DNA of 64,000 bases from the sequence record OZ346187.1. The stretch is one strand, 5' to 3'. The translations under genes and the position numbers were made by a program. Source of the DNA: a phage. Position 1 is the stretch's first letter. Each line of letters starts with the position of its first letter. The notes beneath the pieces were generated by a model, which was not told the origin of the DNA, ran no database searches, and worked only from the letters and a program-made list of their open reading frames with translations. This document shows, piece by piece, positions 1,593 to 61,974 of this stretch.

Positions 1593-2357
1593 TTGAAATT
1601 CATCTACAAAGAACACTACCACAAAGGTGTTGTGTGGAGTCTATTTGACGGGTCTGGTGGTGCAGTTATTGACTGGGCAAAAGCTGGGTACCTGTGCCTG
1701 TGCTTTAATGCAGAAGGTGCTGACCACGGCAGTTATGCAGAGGTGATAACCGATCATCCTAACATTCACTATGTGGATTATTGGATTGACCCATGGTTCC
1801 CTCAGGAAACTTTTTGCATGTATCCAGCTCCAGACTTTATTCTTGCATTTCCTCCGTGCACGCATTTAGCGGTATCAGGTGCTGCACATTTTAAGAAAAA
1901 GCTGGCTAAGGATCCTTTGATCCAAATTAATGCTGTAAAGGATGCTCGGGTTGCGGAAGAGTTGGGAGAGATTTACGATTGCCCGTGGCATGTAGAGAAT
2001 CCTGTAGGGGTTATGTCCACACTGTGGCGAAAACCTGATTACCGTTTTCATCCTTCGGATTATGGTGGGTATTTACCGGAGGATGATGTAAACCCCTGGT
2101 TTCCTGAATTTATAGCTCCACGTGATGCCTACCCAAAAATAACTTGCGGCTGGATAGGCAATGGATTTATAATCCCGGCCACAAAACCTGTCCCGCAAAT
2201 AGTTGACGCGGTTAGCGGGTATTCCATGCAACACGCCAAGCTGGGTGGAAAGAGTGCAAGAACGAAGATGATCCGAAGCCTCACGCCACGTGGCTGGGCA
2301 AAAGCCGTATTCTTAGCAAACGAGCCTGTAGTAAGGAGCAGAATTAATGGGAAGTAA
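1593..2357 (+). CDS. putative cytosine-5 DNA methyltransferase-like protein
   Basis: LFDGSGG (motif I-like), FPPCTHLAVSG (PC motif IV-like), WHVENPVG (ENV motif VI); probable TTG start after GGAGA RBS; start uncertain. Confidence 0.4.
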   Translation: MKFIYKEHYHKGVVWSLFDGSGGAVIDWAKAGYLCLCFNAEGADHGSYAEVITDHPNIHYVDYWIDPWFPQETFCMYPAPDFILAFPPCTHLAVSGAAHFKKKLAKDPLIQINAVKDARVAEELGEIYDCPWHVENPVGVMSTLWRKPDYRFHPSDYGGYLPEDDVNPWFPEFIAPRDAYPKITCGWIGNGFIIPATKPVPQIVDAVSGYSMQHAKLGGKSARTKMIRSLTPRGWAKAVFLANEPVVRSRINGK

Positions 2358-4425
2358 ATTTATGGCATCTGCATACAACCGTTTCGGTGAGCCAAACCCG
2401 AAAGCAATTAAGTATAAAAGTGGGGGAAGTGTGAAACGAGACTATCGTGATGAAAAAGAGGTTGAAACTGTAGAGACTGTTTTAGAAAATACTAAAATCG
2501 TCCCTGTCCCACAACAAAATATCGGTCTGATGGCTGCACAATATTTTGGTGTGCGATCAGCATTGTCCCAAGAAGACGGTGTGACAGTCACTGCAACATA
2601 TTTCCCATATTACGACCGATACGGAAATCTGTCCGGTTTCAAAAAGCGTGACTGGACTATTCCTAAAGAACAAAGGGGCCACTTCTCCGTTGTTGGCATA
2701 GTAAAGGCCAACTCCCAGATGTTTGGTCAAAAGCTGTGTGCATCTTCCAACAACCGTAAGCAGATTAACGTTTGTGAGGGAGAAGGTGATGTTATTGCAG
2801 CATGGCAGGCTGCATATCAGATACAAGTAAAAGGGATTCTCACCAACGCTAAAGCCCCGGCAAAGGTGAAGCAGTGGGCTAAAGAGGTCCAGGACGGGAT
2901 CGACGCAGTTATCAACGGTGGTGATCTGGCAGGAAAACCCTGCCTGCCTTTTGTTGGAATTAACTGTGGATGTGCAAACGCAGTAGATACTTTTGCAAAC
3001 AATGAGAAGTTTATCCGTAGCTATGGAACAGTTGTGCTGGCAATGGATAACGATGCAGCTAACGAGGTAGAGAAGCAAAAACACGTCATTAAAGGTGTTG
3101 AGGCCACGCACAATATCGCAGCATTTTTGATGGCTGATAACGTTTACCACGTAGAATACCCTGGTGAAGTAAATGACCCTGACGGGGTAAAAGATATCCG
3201 TGACATGCTGAAGGCTAAAAAGCTGGAAGATATTGTCAACATGTTCCGGCACCCTGTTAAATATGTGCCTGATGCTGTGTCGGATTTAGAAGACTTCTCT
3301 ATCGAGTCTTTGCGGAAAAAGACTTCCAACGGGGTAGATATCAGCGCAGAGTTCCCAAAACTGCAAAAAATGCTAAAAGGCTTGCACAAAGGGACACTCG
3401 TAATGCTTACAGGGCCATCAGGGGGCGGTAAAACAACTGTAGCTAAAAAACTGGAACATTGTATTGCAAGATACCTAATGGACCCGACATGCCCGAAGGC
3501 TGATGACTATGAAGAGGATGATCGTCTATGTATGATCCATCTTGAGGAGGACCCAGAGGAAGCAATTAACTCCTTGTATGCAAACCAGTTAGGGTTTGAT
3601 GTTAAAGAGTTTGTTGAAGATCCTAGCCAGTTTTTAACTGATCAAGAACACGCAGAGATTCACCAATCATGGGCAAAAGCTGGAAAAATCAAAGTGTTCA
3701 AACATTTCGGATCTATTCCGGTGGACGAGTTGATTACCAAGCTTAAGCAAATGGTTTGCCTGTACCATTGCCGTTATATTGTGCTGGATCACCTATCCAT
3801 GGTAATTTCAGGGCTTAATGTTAAGGATGAGCGAAAAGAACTGGACATGGCTATGACTCAGCTGGCTGCGTTTTGTAAGCAGTTTAACGTGTTTATCTTG
3901 GTGATCGCTCACCTCAAACGTACAGAGATTGTGCCTCCTAAGGACAAGGATGGTAACCCGTTACCTTTCTGGTATCCTGTGCGAAAAGAGAATTTGCGAG
4001 GATCGGCGGGGCTTGAACAGTTGAGTTGGGTAGTCATAGGTGTCGAGGCCGAAGAAATGGTGGATCGTTCTCGTGGACGTGTCCGTCTGGTAGGTCTTAA
4101 AAACCGTCCAGCAAAAACTCTAGGTATTGCTGACACTTTGGTTATGGACCCGCACACAGGTAAGTTCCATGATGCCAGTAATTGGTACTGGGACAAAGAA
4201 ATGCAAATGTTTACAGACGGAGAAGGTGGGGAGGTTGTTTGGAGACCTCAGGCTATGTTTGAGGATCAGGAGCATGCAGTTGTAGAAACACCTATGGGCA
4301 AGGTTGTGGCTGATAAGGTTGTAACTCCTACTGTTAAGCCTGTTGACACGCAGGAAGACCTCCAGTACGATGATCCATCCTCTGACCCGGTCCCTGGTTT
4401 TGAGGATGATGAAACGCCTTTTTAA
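2347..4425 (+). CDS. primase-helicase (TOPRIM primase fused to DnaB-like helicase)
   Basis: TOPRIM-like CEGEGD and VLAMDNDAANE; Walker A GPSGGGKTT; Walker B IVLDHLS; 692 aa. Confidence 0.7.
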   Translation: MGSKFMASAYNRFGEPNPKAIKYKSGGSVKRDYRDEKEVETVETVLENTKIVPVPQQNIGLMAAQYFGVRSALSQEDGVTVTATYFPYYDRYGNLSGFKKRDWTIPKEQRGHFSVVGIVKANSQMFGQKLCASSNNRKQINVCEGEGDVIAAWQAAYQIQVKGILTNAKAPAKVKQWAKEVQDGIDAVINGGDLAGKPCLPFVGINCGCANAVDTFANNEKFIRSYGTVVLAMDNDAANEVEKQKHVIKGVEATHNIAAFLMADNVYHVEYPGEVNDPDGVKDIRDMLKAKKLEDIVNMFRHPVKYVPDAVSDLEDFSIESLRKKTSNGVDISAEFPKLQKMLKGLHKGTLVMLTGPSGGGKTTVAKKLEHCIARYLMDPTCPKADDYEEDDRLCMIHLEEDPEEAINSLYANQLGFDVKEFVEDPSQFLTDQEHAEIHQSWAKAGKIKVFKHFGSIPVDELITKLKQMVCLYHCRYIVLDHLSMVISGLNVKDERKELDMAMTQLAAFCKQFNVFILVIAHLKRTEIVPPKDKDGNPLPFWYPVRKENLRGSAGLEQLSWVVIGVEAEEMVDRSRGRVRLVGLKNRPAKTLGIADTLVMDPHTGKFHDASNWYWDKEMQMFTDGEGGEVVWRPQAMFEDQEHAVVETPMGKVVADKVVTPTVKPVDTQEDLQYDDPSSDPVPGFEDDETPF

Positions 4426-4487
4426 TGTTTAACAAAGAGTGGGAGGGGTAGTACAACCGCCTCCCCTTTAAGGAGAACGTTTATACT

Positions 4488-7400
4488 ATGAGTATGTGGA
4501 ATTTTGACTTTGAGGCCTCAGGTCTTCTGGACGAGGAAGATCTTTACTACCATTGTGGCCTGTTTAAAGAGTTGAATAAAAATAATTTTATGTTGTTTTT
4601 GCCTATCAATGATAGATCTCATTACAGTGAAGAGGAGGTTGAAAAAGCAAAACAATTTATGCTGGCAAAGCAAGATATCTATCCTAGCTGCTCTGTCCGT
4701 ATTGCGGATTTCAGCCAGCTTGAATGGTGGTTAACCGGGAACTCCGATTGGTCACCCACATCATTAAGTTGTCACAACTGTTTTAGTTATGACTTTATCT
4801 TGATGGAGAAGCTGTCTGGTATTCATTTTGATATGTTCCGTGATCCCAAGTGTATGGGGACAATCAATAATCATCAGGTGAACCTGTTCGACACTCTGCC
4901 AATGAGTCGTATACTATGGCCCGACAGACCGTTACCTAAAGGATGCCCTGATTCTGTATACAATCCTGTTACAAAACGTATGCAGCAGGTAGGTCCTCAT
5001 GGCCTAATGGCGTGGGGGTACGCTTTAGGAAACCAGAAGGTTAAAATTGATGACTGGAGAAATTTACCTCTGTGGAAGTATGTTGATCGTGTATTCGAGG
5101 ACGTTATCATCCAGGAGCTGCTCTGGAAAGAGCTGGTAGCGGAATCAAAAGGTGTATTCTACGGCAAATCTGACATGCAGAACTTTATGTACGATCCAGC
5201 CAAAGAGAAGCCGAAAGGGTTCAAGAAGATTACCTGGAAGAATGCATTACGCCGAGGCATGCTGCAGCACTTCCTGATGGAGCTGCAGGCCCGTCAGGGT
5301 GTATACTTCGACATAGATGGAGCTATTGCTTTACGTGACCGTTGCGATGCGTGGATGAAAGAAATCGCTGATCGTGTTGAACCACAACTACCTTTAAAAG
5401 AGCTGTCAATGTCTCAGCGGCCCAAGTTCCCTGAAAAGCCGTTTAACCAAGACGGGACAATCTCTAATAATGGTTGGAAATGGTTAAAAGATAAGCTTGG
5501 CTATCCTGTAGACATGAGTGCTTTAGAGTTCAAAGCCCCGCCTAAGCGAGCATTTACCTCTACAGGAGATGTCAGCAAGATGGGGATAAAATGGTGTGAA
5601 GAGATGGGCTGCAAAGACCCCGATAAGATGGCTGATTTCTTGAGAGGCTATATTAAGGGCACCTCCACACCACAACCCTTACCTAAAGAGCTGATGGATC
5701 AGGCAATAAGTGATCTGCAGCAGAAGCGAATGCCTGACTGCAAGATACCTATGAAAATCAGCAATCAGGACGACATCAAGCGATACCTAATCAGTGCTGG
5801 TTGGCTCCCAACAATGTGGAGAACTAAAGATGTAACTAAAGACAGCAAGAAGAAAGCTTTACCTGATGCAGATGTTGATGCACGAGTATATGCATATATG
5901 GACGAGCTTTTGGAGTCAGAGTATTGTGACCTAATTATCAACTTCTGGAACAAAACTGATGCTAAGTTCCAGACAACCGTGCACAAGTTCCGAAGCTTTC
6001 CTAACTCCGAAAGGATTAAAAAGGAAGTATTCGGGAAAATACGTAGAAAAGCCAGGGCACTTATTACTTCTCCGCAACTGAAAGATACGTTTGGACACCT
6101 ATGCCCAAATCTTGAAAAATTGAACGGAGAGATGGCTAAAGATATCGTCTTGTGGTTATCATTGCGAAACCGCAGATCGGTCCTTGATCCAATCAAGGAG
6201 GATAAGGTTGATACTGGTCTTCTTAATCACCCACGTTTGAAGATTGACCATAAGCTTCCTGCTAAAAGCTCTGGATTAACAAACACTTCCAGACAGAAAC
6301 ACAGTATTTGTGCAAACATGCCTAAACCATCTCCTAAAGTGGTTATGGGTAAAGAGATGCGTAGTCTGTGGGGTGTTCCTCCGGGATACTTTGAGATCGG
6401 TATTGACGGGTCCAACTTAGAGCAGCTTATCGGGGCTTGGGGTGCCTTTGAGTTCGACAACGGCCTGTATTATGATGTTGTAAGTAATGGCGATGCACAC
6501 TGTTATTCAGGAGATACACAAATTCTCACGGAGAAAGGGTGGGTGAGGTTTGAAGATCTTGATCCGGGAACACAAGTGTTCCAGTACGATCACAACACCT
6601 CGTCAATGAACCTTGTTACTCCATTAAATTACGTTAAGCGTAGTTATTGTGGGGATATGTATCATTTCCACAACAGTAGTGTGGATTTTATGGTTACAGA
6701 TCAACACAGGATGCTGACTGTGGATCACAGAAGCAATAAATTGTTTGAAGATTTGGCAAAAGACCTGAAAGCAGGTAAAGGGTCTAATTCAGGAAGAAGG
6801 TTTATCCATGCGGCAGAGTTTTATGGGAATACAACCTTATCTCCTGCCCAGGTTAATTTGCTTATTGCTATTCACGATGATGGGCACTTGCATACAAATA
6901 AGGACGGCAGCATCGTGTGCAGGATTCAGGTCGGAAAGGGAAGAAAAGTTGCAACGCTTTTAGATACTTTTTCTGCTCTAAGCCTTAGTTATGTAGAGCA
7001 GAGCGGGAAAACCACAAAAGGGGGCTTACTGGCGAGAAGGTTCCAATTCCACGTTCCGTCCTGGGTATTTGAGTTTTTGGACAACAATAAGGATTTCACC
7101 TATAACCTGATGAACCTTGATAAAGAATCTAAAAACCTGTTTATAGCTTCTTTATCTAACTGGGACGGGTGGGTATCTTCCGAAGGTGGAAAGGTTGCTT
7201 ACTACTCCCAGGCCGAGTGCAGGAAGAAATCTGTAGAGGTGGTGTCTGCGCTGGCTACTCAGTGTGGTTTACGGAATAATACGGTGGCGATTCACAAAAA
7301 AGGTCGTGCCGTGCAGCACAGAATCACAATTGGTAGCAAACAGAGAGCAGGGTTGCTGACACTATCTAAAGAGTCTGTCGAGGTGAGCGGTTCTTTGGTT

Positions 7401-7880
7401 TATTGCGTTACCGTCCCTTCTGGAGCAATCATTGTGAGAAGGAATGGTAAAGTGGCAGTGTGCGGTAACTGTAATAACGCCAAAGCTTACTCTTCTGTAG
7501 CAGGCAAGGAGATTTCCCGTAACGATGGTAAACCTATCACGTATGGGGTTATGTATGGGGCACAAAAAGATAAAGTTGCAGATATGCTGGACATCTCCCC
7601 AGAGTTGGGACAAAGGGTAATCGATGCACTCTGGGATGCCAACCCAGGTCTTAAGGGGCGCAAAGAGGATCTGGAGAAATTCTGGGAAGCAACAGGTAAG
7701 AAGTTTATCTACTCTTTTGATGGTCATGCTATCTGGACCCGATCTAAACACTCTTTACTTAATGCATACCAACAAAATGGCGGTGCATCGTTGTGTGACT
7801 TAGTTGGAATACTCATGCACCACCAGATGGTGAAGCGTGGGTGGTACGATGAAGGTGTTCGTCGTATTATTTATTACCAT
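4488..7880 (+). CDS. DNA polymerase, family A (T7 gp5-like), exon 1, containing an intein
   Basis: N-terminal FDFEASGL...YHCG exonuclease motif; motif A-like IDGSNLEQL; motif B-like RNDGKPITYGVMYGAQ; ORF stop at 7884-7886 is assigned to the intron. Confidence 0.8.
6501..7469 (+). mobile_element. intein with LAGLIDADG-type homing endonuclease, in-frame between polymerase motifs A and B
   Basis: Starts CYSGDTQILTEKG (intein block A); two LAGLIDADG-like motifs (LLIAIHDDGHL, FIASLSNWDGWV); ends ...VAVCGN followed by Cys at 7470; 969 nt, frame preserved. Confidence 0.65.
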
Positions 7881-8132
7881 AAATAACATTGTGGCTTCAT
7901 AGAGTAATCTATGTCGAATAACCTCTTTAACTGCGGGAAGCCTAAACCTTATGGCAAGGTAATCCGCAACGAAGCGCTCAAAAGAGCGAACGCTCAGAGG
8001 CCATTCCGAAAGGAAGTAGACCAGCAAGTGCGGTCGAAATGGGAGGATTCCTGTGGTTGCTTATCATAGGAATATGAGATGGTCCGATCCTACGTGAAAA
8101 CGTATGGCTATGCACGTAATGGTGCGGGGTAG
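7881..8132 (+). mobile_element. ORF-less group I intron in the DNA polymerase gene
   Basis: P-like CTGCGGGAAGCC and Q-like AATCCGCAACG elements; exon ends in U (7880) that can pair with GUGG 11 nt downstream (P1); ACGU-GAAA-ACGU hairpin near 3' end; last nt G (8132); joining 7880 to 8133 keeps frame. Confidence 0.55.
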
Positions 8133-8510
8133 CTTAACGACCTACCTGAACTATTGGATGAGTACCAACTTCAAGTGCCTGACACACCGAAGTATAAGAC
8201 TGTGTACACCTTCGACACAATTGAAGAACTGGAAGCATTTAAGGCAGAGCAGGAAGCCAAACTTCATGTGTTCGACGGTCATAAGTACAAAAAGGCACGC
8301 AAGGATGAGGACGGAAACGAAGTGGTTGACAGAGACGGAAACACGGTGTACGATCCTATCCTGAACGATGACGGAAAGCTTGAACTTATCTGGAGCCCTG
8401 TGGGTGAAATGGTGGTACATTGCTTCTGGCAAGCTTCTAAAATGATGGGAGTCCCGTTCCAGATCACAGGTGAATACTTGTGTGGTCGTAATTGGGGTGA
8501 TTGTCACTAA
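8133..8510 (+). CDS. DNA polymerase, family A, exon 2 (C-terminal)
   Basis: Frame open from 8133; C-terminus ...CGRNWGDCH resembles the Pol I-family terminus (GENWDQAH-like). Confidence 0.55.
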   Translation, partial: LNDLPELLDEYQLQVPDTPKYKTVYTFDTIEELEAFKAEQEAKLHVFDGHKYKKARKDEDGNEVVDRDGNTVYDPILNDDGKLELIWSPVGEMVVHCFWQASKMMGVPFQITGEYLCGRNWGDCH

Positions 8511-8559
8511 TGTAAACTATCAACACATGGAAGTGTTGTTGAGCAAAGAGGAGACTTTT

Positions 8560-8844
8560 ATGGTAGTAGAACCAACAAAAACATTTACATCCATGACTAT
8601 CCCTGTTATTATGCAGGTGGAGTGTGTTCAGGTATCTCAAGTGTGGCCTGGCACCAAAATCCCAACAGGGCCTGATTTCTTTCAGGTTGGGAAAGTGTAC
8701 AATGTCTGGAAGGCACCAGATTGTTACCCTTTCATTAAAGATGACCGTGGGATGCTGTGGTATCTTGGAAATGACTTGACACTGCACCTTGGGAATGCTA
8801 TTATTGCAGTATTCAGACTTAACAAGAAGGAGACCGATCAATGA
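8560..8844 (+). CDS. hypothetical protein
   Basis: ORF track 8470-8844; internal ATG at 8560 follows AGGAGAC RBS and lies after the polymerase stop. Confidence 0.35.
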   Translation: MVVEPTKTFTSMTIPVIMQVECVQVSQVWPGTKIPTGPDFFQVGKVYNVWKAPDCYPFIKDDRGMLWYLGNDLTLHLGNAIIAVFRLNKKETDQ

Positions 8845-9068
8845 CGACTTTGGTTAAAGCCACCTTTGTAGAAGAAAAGATGACAGACATGTCATTCTTT
8901 AAAGAAGGAAAGACCTACGAGGTTTATTCCGATAAAGCTCGTGCAAACAAAATGATTAAAGACGAGGAAGGGGTTGACTGGTATATCTCTCACCTGGCAA
9001 ACGGTGAGTATCATATCTACGGAACCACTTTGCTTGCCAAGTTTGTAGTTGTTGAAGAGGACCTATGA
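8841..9068 (+). CDS. hypothetical protein
   Basis: 75-aa ORF; start overlaps upstream stop. Confidence 0.4.
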   Translation: MTTLVKATFVEEKMTDMSFFKEGKTYEVYSDKARANKMIKDEEGVDWYISHLANGEYHIYGTTLLAKFVVVEEDL

Positions 9069-61103: not shown

Positions 61104-61162
61104 TGTAAACATGGTCTCCCACCTTTTCTGGCGGCTAAGGTGTAAAAGAAAGCCACCCAGTG

Positions 61163-61237
61163 CCCTGTTAGCTTAGTGGATAAAGCAGCGGCCTTCTAAG
61201 CCGTTGACACTGGTTCGAGTCCAGTACGGGGTGCCAA
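61163..61237 (+). tRNA. tRNA-Arg (anticodon TCT)
   Basis: Hand-folded cloverleaf: acceptor GCCCTGT/ACGGGGT (with G.U pairs), anticodon loop CTTCTAA, T-loop GGTTCGAGTCC, CCA encoded. Confidence 0.65.
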
Positions 61238-61241
61238 ATTG

Positions 61242-61327
61242 GGGAGTTATCCCGTAGAGGTAGCGGTGTAGACTGTAAATCTATTGTCATTGCGACTCGG
61301 GTGGTTCGACTCCACCACTCCCCACCA
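61242..61327 (+). tRNA. tRNA-Tyr (anticodon GTA), long variable arm
   Basis: Acceptor GGGGAGT/ACTCCCC, anticodon loop CTGTAAA, T-arm GGTGG-TTCGACT-CCACC, CCA encoded. Confidence 0.65.
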
Positions 61328-61441
61328 AATTTATATTTTTAGATGCATAAATAATACAGATAATGGCATTGATATTTATCGTCGTTTATACTAGTCACTA
61401 ACTGCTCGAAAATCAGTGTCATTATCAGTATAATTTATAAA

Positions 61442-61532
61442 GGAGGGTAGGGAGCAATGGTGCTCAAGCGGTCTTGAAAACCGTCCCGTTGAGGATGACT
61501 CGATGATGGTTCGATTCCATTACTCTCCGCCA
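61442..61532 (+). tRNA. tRNA-Ser (anticodon TGA), long variable arm
   Basis: Acceptor GGAGGGT/ACTCTCC, D-stem GAGC/GCTC, anticodon loop CTTGAAA, T-loop GGTTCGATTCC, CCA encoded. Confidence 0.6.
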
Positions 61533-61630
61533 CATTGTTGACCTTGTAATTAAGCGAAAGCCGGAAGCAGAACCGGATTATCAAATGTTACAGTCGTCAT
61601 CGCCGACTAGCAACATGGTCAACATACTGA

Positions 61631-61729
61631 GCTAGGTAAGCCCTTTGGCAAGGGCGAGGATTTTTAATCCTGAAAATAGACGAGGTAGTCGTTGAATACA
61701 TAGGTGGTTCGATTCCATCACCTAGCACC
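61631..61729 (+). tRNA. atypical tRNA-like gene (~99 nt), anticodon ambiguous (most consistent with TTT)
   Basis: Perfect 7-bp acceptor GCTAGGT/ACCTAGC, D-arm GCCC-TTTGGCAA-GGGC, T-arm GGTGG-TTCGATT-CCATC; anticodon stem imperfect with loop TTTTTAA; ~29-nt extra region before the T-arm; 3' end ACC then T (CCA not fully encoded). Confidence 0.35.
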
Positions 61730-61734
61730 TTTTT

Positions 61735-61810
61735 GCTGATGTAGCACAATCGGTAGTGCAATTGATTTGTAATCAATAGGTTGTAGGTTCAAGTCCTGCC
61801 ATCAGCACCA
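61735..61810 (+). tRNA. tRNA-Thr (anticodon TGT)
   Basis: Acceptor GCTGATG/CATCAGC, D-arm GCAC-AATCGGTA-GTGC, anticodon stem ATTGA/TCAAT with loop TTTGTAA, CCA encoded. Confidence 0.7.
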
Positions 61811-61811
61811 A

Positions 61812-61886
61812 GGCCCTGTAGCTGGAAGGTTCAAGCAAGCGACTCATAATCGCCAGACGGTGGTTCAATTCCACCCAGGGCCACCA
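61812..61886 (+). tRNA. tRNA-Met (anticodon CAT; initiator, elongator or Ile-lysidine type not resolved)
   Basis: Acceptor GGCCCTG/CAGGGCC, anticodon loop CTCATAA, T-arm GGTGG-TTCAATT-CCACC, CCA encoded. Confidence 0.65.
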
Positions 61887-61897
61887 AATAGTAAATA

Positions 61898-61974
61898 CTC
61901 CGCGTAGCTCAGCTTGGTAGAGCGCCTGATTTGGGATCAGGAGGTCGAGTGTTCGAATCACTCCGTGGAGACCA
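61898..61974 (+). tRNA. tRNA-Pro (anticodon TGG)
   Basis: Acceptor CTCCGCG/CGTGGAG, D-arm GCTC-AGCTTGGTA-GAGC, anticodon stem CCTGA/TCAGG with loop TTTGGGA, T-arm GAGTG-TTCGAAT-CACTC, CCA encoded. Confidence 0.7.

Follow-up and report, generated by a model that had tools for sequence, protein, structure and literature searches.

The window analyzed here, a stretch of 64,000 nucleotides (nt) of phage DNA (record OZ346187.1), very probably contains a single family A DNA polymerase gene that was invaded by two independent selfish elements, an intein with a LAGLIDADG-type endonuclease domain and a group I intron without an open reading frame (ORF), both of which would be removed to give an enzyme of 925 amino acids (aa). 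Judged by DNA similarity, the source of the window is a Vequintavirus (rV5-like coliphage). The region from 4000 to 9000 matched many genomes of this group of Escherichia coli myoviruses with 91-99% DNA identity, and MaxTheCat was the nearest backbone (99.1%). The ORF at 4488-7886 (1132 aa) is the 5' part of the T7-like polymerase gene, and its start codon agrees with that of the annotated MaxTheCat polymerase coding sequence (CDS). The Pfam DNA_pol_A score on this interrupted ORF was below threshold. Once both elements were removed, motifs A, B and C appeared in order, and the T7 DNA polymerase chains could be aligned (E = 1.5e-13). In this alignment, motif A of the window (GIDGSNLE) corresponded to GIDASGLE of T7 and motif B (RNDGKPITYGVMYGA) to RDNAKTFIYGFLYGA, while motif C read YYHDE. 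The 925-aa product aligned without gaps to the 925-aa polymerase of phage bov25_3, with 95.7% identity. A preliminary description of the sequence had already pointed out the ORF with its TAA stop at 7884-7886, the Pol I-type C-terminus (...CGRNWGDCH) ending at 8510, an ORF-less group I intron between them, with exon CCAU paired to intron GUGG in P1, and an in-frame 323-aa block running from CYSGDTQ to VCGN and followed by Cys, which it took for a LAGLIDADG intein between motifs A and B. All of these were borne out by the comparisons below.

The covariance-model search placed Rfam family RF00028 at 7871-8106 with 64.7 bits (E = 4e-14 for the whole window), against a gathering cut-off of 50 bits. 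The match covered the full model (1-253) and was the sole non-tRNA Rfam match within the 64 kb. The model ends at P9, at 8106, short of the real 3' end of the intron. P1 was paired in the Rfam alignment as in the preliminary description, and its sole wobble was U7880.G7891, which sets the 5' splice site at 7880/7881. No credible ORF was found within the intron (7881-8156). The intron splits motif C between the His and the Asp-Glu, and the T7 alignment puts the site in ...VH/DE. Joining ...IIYYH to DEYQLQV (from 8157) rebuilt the HDE of motif C, the T7 counterpart being ...AWVH/DEIQV. When the junction peptide was searched by tblastn, it gave one unbroken 531-nt match with 99-100% identity in bov25_3, naam and CarlMeissner, and two pieces spanning 531 + 276 nt in MaxTheCat. 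At the DNA level, position 3680/3681 of bov25_3 corresponded to 7880/8157 of the window, i.e. the intron was exactly absent. The equivalent spliced product of MaxTheCat was identical, residue for residue, to GenBank entry QXV82815.1, and the AlexBoehm entry QXV75624.1 agreed as well. The contiguity in bov25_3, the tblastn matches and the identity to QXV82815.1 together define the intron as 7881-8156, with G8156 as its last base. Six variants of the intron all end in ...UG/GAUGA. A P10 pairing can also be read from the sequence, between GAUG at 8157-8160 and CAUU at 7887-7890, just 5' of the P1 guide. Exon 2, which is 100% identical to that of MaxTheCat, has four synonymous differences from the intron-less allele within its first 12 nt, and one of them, GAC to GAU, makes the P10 pairing. 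The exon junction expected in spliced RNA would be ...TTACCAT/GATGAGTAC..., which can also be written ...TATTACCAT/GATGAGTACC..., and the corresponding peptide would be ...IIYYH-DEYQLQVPDTPK.

The preliminary description had the 5' splice site right, but it joined 7880 to 8133 and thus missed the 3' site (8156/8157) by 24 nt, making the intron 252 nt (7881-8132) instead of 276 nt. G8132 does precede the first sense codon of the downstream frame, which is open from 8133, but 8133 is merely the first codon after an in-frame TAG. A junction at this position would add eight residues to the catalytic motif C (...IIYYH-LNDLPELL-DEYQ...), whereas in the intron-less alleles 8157 follows directly on 7880 and no codons are added. 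A search of ~15 billion public sequences did not find the resulting 933-aa product; GenBank has the 925-aa product as its annotation. P10 would be impossible with CUUAAC, and G8132 is already paired to C8142 in a covarying helix. The shorter intron therefore has almost no chance of being correct.

This helix, P9.2, belongs to a comparative model in which P1 to P9.2, including the P3/P7 pseudoknot, were laid out for the window and four diverged homologs at the same site, those of JEP1 (328 nt), JLBYU08 (329 nt), Avunavirus 19-1-2 (317 nt) and Vibrio phage K470. Each of the four scored 72-91 bits with Rfam. Partners slid by 1-3 columns and 500 shuffles served as controls. Over the five homologs and 71 pairs, standard pairs filled 96.9% of the cells, compared with 36-39% in the slid controls. 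Both sides had changed in 28 of the 71 pairs, and none of the 500 shuffles matched any of the measures. Compensatory changes occurred in 12 of the 13 helices, and P1 was invariant across all five homologs. P3 and P7 were each 100% paired, with one compensatory change in P7 (U-A to C-G). P7.2 (8019-8035) was likewise 100% paired and had two compensatory pairs; P7.1 (8004-8015) was 78% paired and weakly supported. The presence of P7.1 and P7.2 between P7 and the 3' strand of P3 points to a probable subgroup IA intron, the usual phage type. P9.2 was 100% paired, and three of its six pairs had changed on both sides (GGUAG/CUACC, GGGAG/CUCC and GCGAG/CUCGC across phages), with G8132 forming the closing G-C pair with C8142. 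The E-value of 4e-14 and this degree of pairing relative to the slid controls mean that the intron match is not due to chance. For K470, the polymerase exons were too divergent to be detected by tblastn with the window exon peptides, and its insertion site was presumed to be the same from the conserved flanks ...UUACCAU/ and /GAUGAG only. When the intron was folded alone by minimum free energy, 8080-8088 paired spuriously with 8153-8161 in a long-range helix that spanned the 3' splice site, and P7 was replaced by a false local hairpin; the comparative model was used instead.

In another reading, the intron would no longer splice, and two polypeptides, residues 1-808 plus the intein and a fragment started from the TTG at 8154, would assemble non-covalently in the manner of Aeh1 NrdA. 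This TTG lies just before exon 2, and non-splicing insertions that split phage genes are known, including Aeh1 NrdA and one intron of phage CB7 (PMC7344957). The two parts also appear as separate CDSs in several GenBank records, but these are automatic calls, and the curated annotations use a join. No Shine-Dalgarno-like sequence was found ahead of the TTG at 8154, and such a split would part the His from the Asp-Glu inside motif C. Moreover, the ribozyme core is complete and shows purifying selection on structure, with the compensatory changes in nearly all helices and with the U.G wobble of P1 and the terminal G retained. We therefore consider a split polymerase extremely unlikely.

The intron was already known in this phage group. 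In the BASEL phages MaxTheCat and AlexBoehm the polymerase is annotated as a two-piece join, and the LL12 announcement described the polymerase gene as 'disrupted by predicted intron sequences' (PMC6658697). The original rV5 paper reported a 775-aa polymerase and mentioned introns only for the terminase gene (PMC3606486). The 276-nt intron was present with at least 99% identity in 23 deposited phage records (99.6-100% in those listed), and it was 100% identical, at the same YYH/DE site, in rV5, LL12, MaxTheCat and YP-6. Some form of the intron occurred at motif C in most Vequintavirus records. Relatives had size variants (JEP1, 328 nt; JLBYU08, 329 nt) and, at the identical site, versions of the same ribozyme with an HNH ORF (AlexBoehm, 842 nt; Mangalyan; Seunavirus GEC_vB_MG, 771 nt). 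A literature search found no splicing experiment on any Vequintavirus intron; in the related Certrevirus CB7, the splicing of HNH-bearing polymerase introns was demonstrated by reverse transcription PCR (PMC7344957).

Several further observations were made on the intron in other records. In the rV5 reference, the polymerase is split into two 'DNA polymerase' CDSs, and the RefSeq 'hypothetical proteins' rv5_gp222 and rv5_gp221 correspond to 7911-8069 and 8104-8364 of the window (3413-3571 and 3606-3866 of the rV5 locus). One of these is wholly intronic, and the other begins in the intron and enters exon 2 out of frame. The split CDSs and the hypothetical proteins are very likely artefacts of the unrecognised intron. 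About 16 'Campylobacter phage' records (MG065635-MG065690; host Campylobacter jejuni) were 93-94% identical to the region and had the identical 276-nt intron. These records either reflect an unexpectedly broad host range or are mislabelled or contaminated. Recognisably related copies of the intron, or just of its last 80 nt at the 3' end (78-85% identical, from P9 to P9.2 with the region of the splice site), occurred in the polymerase regions of phages of distant hosts, namely K470 (1191-1500 of its locus), Pseudomonas SPA01, Pseudaeromonas KLEP7 and Vibrio 1.161.O. This suggests that the 3' part of the ribozyme or the flanking exon may have been widely exchanged. A second intron, not present in the window, was seen in motif B (...ITYG/IMYGAQ), ~24 codons downstream of the intein site, in Seunavirus GEC_vB_MG (158-799 of its locus) and Avunavirus 19-1-2 (~134-867 of its locus). 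The former is a group I intron with an HNH ORF (Rfam 63.8 bits), and the latter appears to be an intron from its split exons only. Counting this motif B site, the subfamily has three or more independent sites of insertion clustered in the active site of the polymerase.

The second element interrupts the protein itself. Exactly 969 extra nt, at 6501-7469, were absent from MaxTheCat and rV5, relatives with ~99% identical flanks, and from bov25_3. The intein-less DNA site of MaxTheCat and rV5 was GGGGACGCACAC/CAAAACAATGCTGAGG, also given as GGGGACGCACAC/CAAAACAATGCTGAGGCATA. At the protein level, ...YDVVSNGDAH/QNNAEAYTKVAG... of these two phages (QNNAEAYTK) corresponded to ...YDVVSNGDAH/CYSGDTQ...VAVCGN/CNNAKAYSSVAG... 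of the window (CNNAKAYSS after the intein). In the alignment to T7 DNA polymerase, the insertion followed NGDIH/T of T7 and stood between motif A and motif B.

A word-indexed protein search with the intein alone returned no match, and an exhaustive HMMER search was needed. It found 7,698 proteins at E <= 1e-3, nearly all of which cover residues 1-323 as an internal block of a larger protein. The hosts are unrelated proteins, and the top matches included the ribonucleotide reductase small chain and family A polymerases. In several of the polymerases (P0007, P0009, P0015, P0021 and P0050), the GDxH/ site was likewise occupied by an intein, with 33-40% identity to that of the window. Family members start with C[YF]xxDTE[IV]LT and end with ...RNGK..V[ST]GN/[CST]. 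The ...[ST]GN/ end was present in nearly all of the 139 family segments, and the Gly-Asn end of the window intein is thus the family norm and no sign of decay. In a 30-sequence alignment, C1, T10, G13, T66, H69, K149, W221, D222 and C302 were invariant, and D127, G223, G322 and N323 were among the near-invariant positions. The window intein has all of the invariant and near-invariant residues, and the residues expected at the splice junctions (C1, T66, H69, N323 and Cys+1) were each invariant or at least 90% conserved. Block B aligned to VSPNHRMI of the AceL NrdHF intein (PDB 6zgq), and the C(V/L)(T/S)VP motif is common to the window intein and AceL NrdHF around its branch-point Cys124 (PMC7891396). 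Pfam Intein_splicing matched 10 of the 30 family members (E up to 0.01), and LAGLIDADG_3 matched five of the 30 at the equivalent region, though not the window sequence.

A profile search of PDB sequences recovered the Hint part only (6zgq, 2jmz) and did not find the endonuclease, so the fold was compared instead. AlphaFold2 run on the family alignment predicted a structure with high scores (pLDDT 93.2, pTM 0.91). Compared with the PDB by Foldseek, the full-length model matched the TliVMA intein (2e-15), PI-SceI and PI-PfuI, with E-values from 1e-12 to 2e-15 for these three, and also PI-TkoII. The central domain matched I-DmoI and I-SceI (E 1e-5 to 2e-6), and the splicing domain matched the AceL NrdHF mini-intein 6zgq, with a probability of 1.00 to intein structures. 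Both LAGLIDADG-like strings end two long predicted helices, an arrangement like that in PI-SceI-type and I-DmoI-type enzymes. In the model, the first motif is followed by a strand after helix 115-127, and its A126 and D127 are at least 90% conserved. The second motif has the invariant W221 and D222, followed by G223 with a conservation of at least 90%. The segment from 6501 to 7469 is therefore, in its predicted fold, a LAGLIDADG-type intein.

A number of points weigh against the removal of both elements to give one polymerase. We infer from the sequence that both elements splice and that the endonuclease cleaves its target, for this phage as for any Vequintavirus. In favour of splicing, carriers of the identical intron (rV5, MaxTheCat) or of ~98% identical intein copies were isolated as viable viruses, and a split motif C or an insertion of 323 aa in the fingers would leave the polymerase without function. 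The covariation set comprised five sequences only, three of them closely related. The intron has no endonuclease gene, which makes its present mobility uncertain. For the intein, the single-sequence scores were sub-threshold (Pfam Hint_2 23.6 vs 28.4, TIGR01445 14.4 vs 24.5), and no LAGLIDADG family matched the window intein alone in the Pfam and NCBIfam scans; its assignment consequently comes from the profile search, the family alignment and the predicted fold. The intein also lacks the penultimate His, the residue in block G being Gly322, and it has a block F Cys of the class 3 type alongside Cys1, so that either cysteine may start splicing.

The missing His and the low scores of the curated hidden Markov models, and the lack of any intein annotation here in the deposited genomes inspected, might be taken to mean that the mature polymerase retains the 323-aa block, either as an intein that has decayed or does not splice or as a domain specific to the lineage. 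We consider this very unlikely. The catalytic positions invariant in the family (C1, T66, H69, C302, N323 and Cys+1) are intact, and Gly-Asn is the normal C-terminus in this family. The fingers would hardly accommodate 323 additional residues between motifs A and B, and close relatives function without them. Furthermore, a solved relative without both histidines, AceL NrdHF, splices within minutes (PMC7891396). The penultimate His is common in inteins but not obligatory.

AceL NrdHF is a proven class 3 intein, with Ala1, a Met-Cys-Thr triplet and no His at C2:13 and C1:6 (PMC7891396). The triplet positions N3:12/C2:4/C1:5 of the window intein are Met71, Cys302 and Cys321 (class 3 consensus Trp-Cys-Thr). 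Met replaces Trp at N3:12, as in AceL NrdHF, and family members have Ser, Thr or Cys at C1:5. Class 3 inteins are defined by having no nucleophile at position 1, whereas Cys1 is invariant in this family, and the window intein is not filed as class 3. Because Cys1 is kept together with Met71, Cys302 and the missing histidines, we describe the intein as having a class 1 N-terminus and a class-3-like block F. The whole family, which is mostly metagenomic, shows the same combination: Cys1 and the block F Cys are both invariant, N3:12 is Met, and the C-terminal histidines are missing. There is thus a tentative possibility, which we hold to be somewhat unlikely, that splicing proceeds via an internal Cys302 branch (class 3) or by a mixed or redundant class 1/class 3 route. 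If true, this would be a class 3 or mixed route in an endonuclease-bearing intein, in an essential gene of an easily grown coliphage.

The intein is rarer than the intron. It was found in only seven phage records (Mangalyan, JEP1, NHEP1, 241Ecol014PP, EPFV3-03/2025, YP-6 and VB-EcoM-WM), with copies 89-98.5% identical to that of the window and none identical to it. None of the four intein-bearing records inspected (YP-6, 241Ecol014PP, JEP1 and Mangalyan) had the intein annotated. All seven records also had the intron at the motif C site, but no association between the two elements can be claimed, because most Vequintavirus records have the intron in one form or another. At 4488-5100 the window was 99.8% identical to the intein-less MaxTheCat and only ~73% identical to the intein-bearing YP-6, 241Ecol014PP and JEP1. 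The intein, in contrast, was ~98% identical to those of the latter three phages, and the next 27 nt (7470-7496) were 100% identical. Mismatches to MaxTheCat clustered beside the insertion. Four of the nine mismatches within 5900-6500 fell in 6473-6494; downstream, there were 22 in 7470-7526 and then a single one up to 7999. By these comparisons, the intein was laterally acquired into a MaxTheCat-like backbone together with short co-converted flanks, as would be expected from endonuclease-initiated gene conversion. The window copy is an unannotated and apparently undescribed allele; its family is widespread, and the polymerase site that it occupies is a recurrent one.

The same data bear on whether the endonuclease is active. 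Only seven of ~120 Vequintavirus records have the intein, no Pfam LAGLIDADG match was obtained for the window sequence, and in the homing cycle, inteins normally pass through a stage of endonuclease decay. The intein could then splice and persist by vertical descent and ordinary recombination, with no homing. We regard this as rather unlikely. The catalytic aspartates D127 and D222 and the conserved K149 are present, and the intein is ~98% conserved across phages with far more diverged flanking polymerase sequence. In addition, the MaxTheCat-like backbone with tight co-conversion tracts of ~28 and ~57 nt constitutes a signature of double-strand-break repair at the insertion site.

In the mechanism that we favour, both elements are removed and the endonuclease is active. 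At the RNA level, an exogenous G would attack after U7880 in P1. The terminal G8156 would then dock, with P10 (GAUG with CAUU) aligning exon 2, and self-splicing would join ...YYH to DEYQ..., so that motif C is rebuilt. At the protein level, the 323-aa intein would excise and ligate ...NGDAH to CNNAK... between motifs A and B, for which Cys1, the Thr and His of block B, Asn323 and the Cys+1 nucleophile are available. The LAGLIDADG domain would act as a homing endonuclease that cuts intein-less polymerase alleles in mixed infections, and recombinational repair of the cut allele would copy the intein in.

Table 1. Features of the interrupted polymerase gene and its two inserted elements (window coordinates).
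Feature	Position	Strand	Evidence
Polymerase exon 1, N-extein: exonuclease, thumb, palm to motif A and ...NGDAH	4488..6500	+	ORF list
Upstream co-conversion tract, ~28 nt	6473..6500	+	Mismatch clustering vs MaxTheCat
Intein, 323 aa (Cys1...Gly322-Asn323), with inserted double-motif LAGLIDADG endonuclease domain (predicted)	6501..7469	+	Absent from relatives, family, AlphaFold2 fold
Intein block A, CYSGDTQILT, Cys1 nucleophile	6501..6530	+	C1, T10, G13 invariant in family
Intein block B, MVTDQHRML (T66, H69, M71)	6690..6716	+	T66, H69 invariant
First LAGLIDADG motif, LLIAIHDDG, acidic D127, residues 120-128	6858..6884	+	Ends helix 115-127
Second LAGLIDADG motif, FIASLSNWDG, acidic D222, residues 214-223	7140..7169	+	Ends helix 208-222
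Intein blocks F and G, VYCVTVPSGAIIV...VAVCGN; C302 at block F position 4; terminal Asn323	7398..7469	+	C302 invariant
Polymerase exon 1, C-extein: Cys+1, motif B, to ...IIYYH of motif C	7470..7880	+	T7 alignment
Downstream co-conversion tract, ~57 nt	7470..7526	+	Mismatch clustering vs MaxTheCat
P1: CCAU/AA (7877-7882) with UUGUGG (7889-7894)	7877..7894	+	Rfam alignment
ORF-less group I intron, 276 nt, IA-like with P7.1 and P7.2	7881..8156	+	Rfam RF00028, absent from bov25_3
In-frame TAA inside intron, truncating the unspliced frame	7884..7886	+	ORF list, sequence
P7 pseudoknot strands, 7999-8003 with 8080-8084; enclose P7.1, P7.2, P3 3' strand and P8	7999..8084	+	Comparative model
P9.2 hairpin GGGUAG / CUACCU, 8127-8132 with 8142-8147	8127..8147	+	Comparative model
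Polymerase exon 2: DEYQLQV...CGRNWGDCH and stop, 117 codons + stop	8157..8510	+	Contiguous with 7880 in bov25_3

The coordinates of these features are collected in Table 1. Upstream of the polymerase, a primase/helicase gene with DnaB_C and AAA_25 domains was located at 2347-4425. The first ~600 nt of the polymerase gene (window 4488-5100) occur as two very different alleles within Vequintavirus. One is shared by the window and MaxTheCat (99.8% identical), and the other, ~73% identical to it, by rV5, bov25_3, YP-6 and JEP1. Among the same phages, identity is 94-100% in the upstream helicase gene and in the remainder of the polymerase gene. From this pattern of identities, the exonuclease end of the gene is a sharp recombination mosaic. 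In 241Ecol014PP, a free-standing HNH endonuclease gene of 648 nt was found at the 3' end of the polymerase gene (4996-5672 of its locus). The insertion corresponds to ~8498 of the window, which does not have it, and the last polymerase codons are altered (CGANWGSCH vs CGRNWGDCH). Farther away, on the + strand at 61162-61971, lies a cluster of six tRNAs, four of them strong (60-77 bits) and two marginal (61631-61727, 35.5 bits; 61243-61322, 29.9 bits).

The boundaries 6501-7469 and 7881-8156 permit the true 925-aa polymerase to be annotated, whereas many Vequintavirus records, including the rV5 reference, show it in fragments, with spurious 'hypothetical proteins' within the intron. The locus also shows how densely selfish elements can target a single phage polymerase active site, with the intein after the GDxH turn and the intron in motif C. 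It is moreover a clear case in nature of an intein that was acquired recently, with co-conversion tracts that are short. The mixed class 1/class 3 signature in a culturable coliphage could offer a convenient model of splicing mechanism, a modest opportunity.

Among known systems, the Vequintavirus polymerase intron (BASEL phages MaxTheCat and AlexBoehm; LL12) is the same element at the same site, with the spliced product QXV82815.1. The introns of PhiI/W31 and SPO1 are likewise group I ribozymes and lie in the part of a phage family A polymerase gene that encodes the catalytic core. They are of the IA-like phage type with P7.1 and P7.2, to which the window intron probably also belongs; the latter differs in being without an endonuclease ORF. 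The window intein has the same predicted architecture as PI-SceI, PI-PfuI and TliVMA/PhoVMA, in which the Hint domain is split by a two-motif LAGLIDADG domain (TM-scores 0.6-0.7), but it is only 11-13% identical to them, lacks the penultimate His and has Cys instead of Asp at block F position 4. With 323 aa compared with 360-540 aa, it is probably without an extra DNA-recognition region. The closest solved relative of the splicing domain is the naturally split AceL NrdHF (6zgq; profile E = 7e-14), an experimentally proven class 3 intein (PMC7891396). The two share a PNHRM-type block B (Met at N3:12), the C(V/L)(T/S)VP block F (Cys at C2:4) and the lack of C-terminal histidines. AceL NrdHF is split, without an endonuclease, and has Ala1, whereas the window intein is contiguous, with a LAGLIDADG domain, an invariant Cys1 and Cys at C1:5.

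We found no paper describing the combination of an intein and an intron in a Vequintavirus polymerase. The preliminary description called two self-splicing elements in one essential gene unusual, which was an overstatement, since the intron is common and annotated in Vequintavirus, and an intein and an intron in one gene are known. Selfish elements of this sort are a familiar burden of phage replication genes. The ribonucleotide reductase genes of the Bacillus prophage SPbeta contain both an intein and a group I intron. The genomes of crAss-like phages are rich in both kinds of element (PMC7886860). In the same subfamily as the window phage, NrdA and NrdB of CB7 each combine an intein with an intron in a single gene (PMC7344957). 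Here and in the genes of CB7 and SPbeta, an essential gene of phage DNA metabolism harbours an element that splices as protein and another that splices as RNA, and both occupy conserved catalytic sites. The host genes differ, being those of ribonucleotide reductase in CB7 and that of the DNA polymerase in the window.

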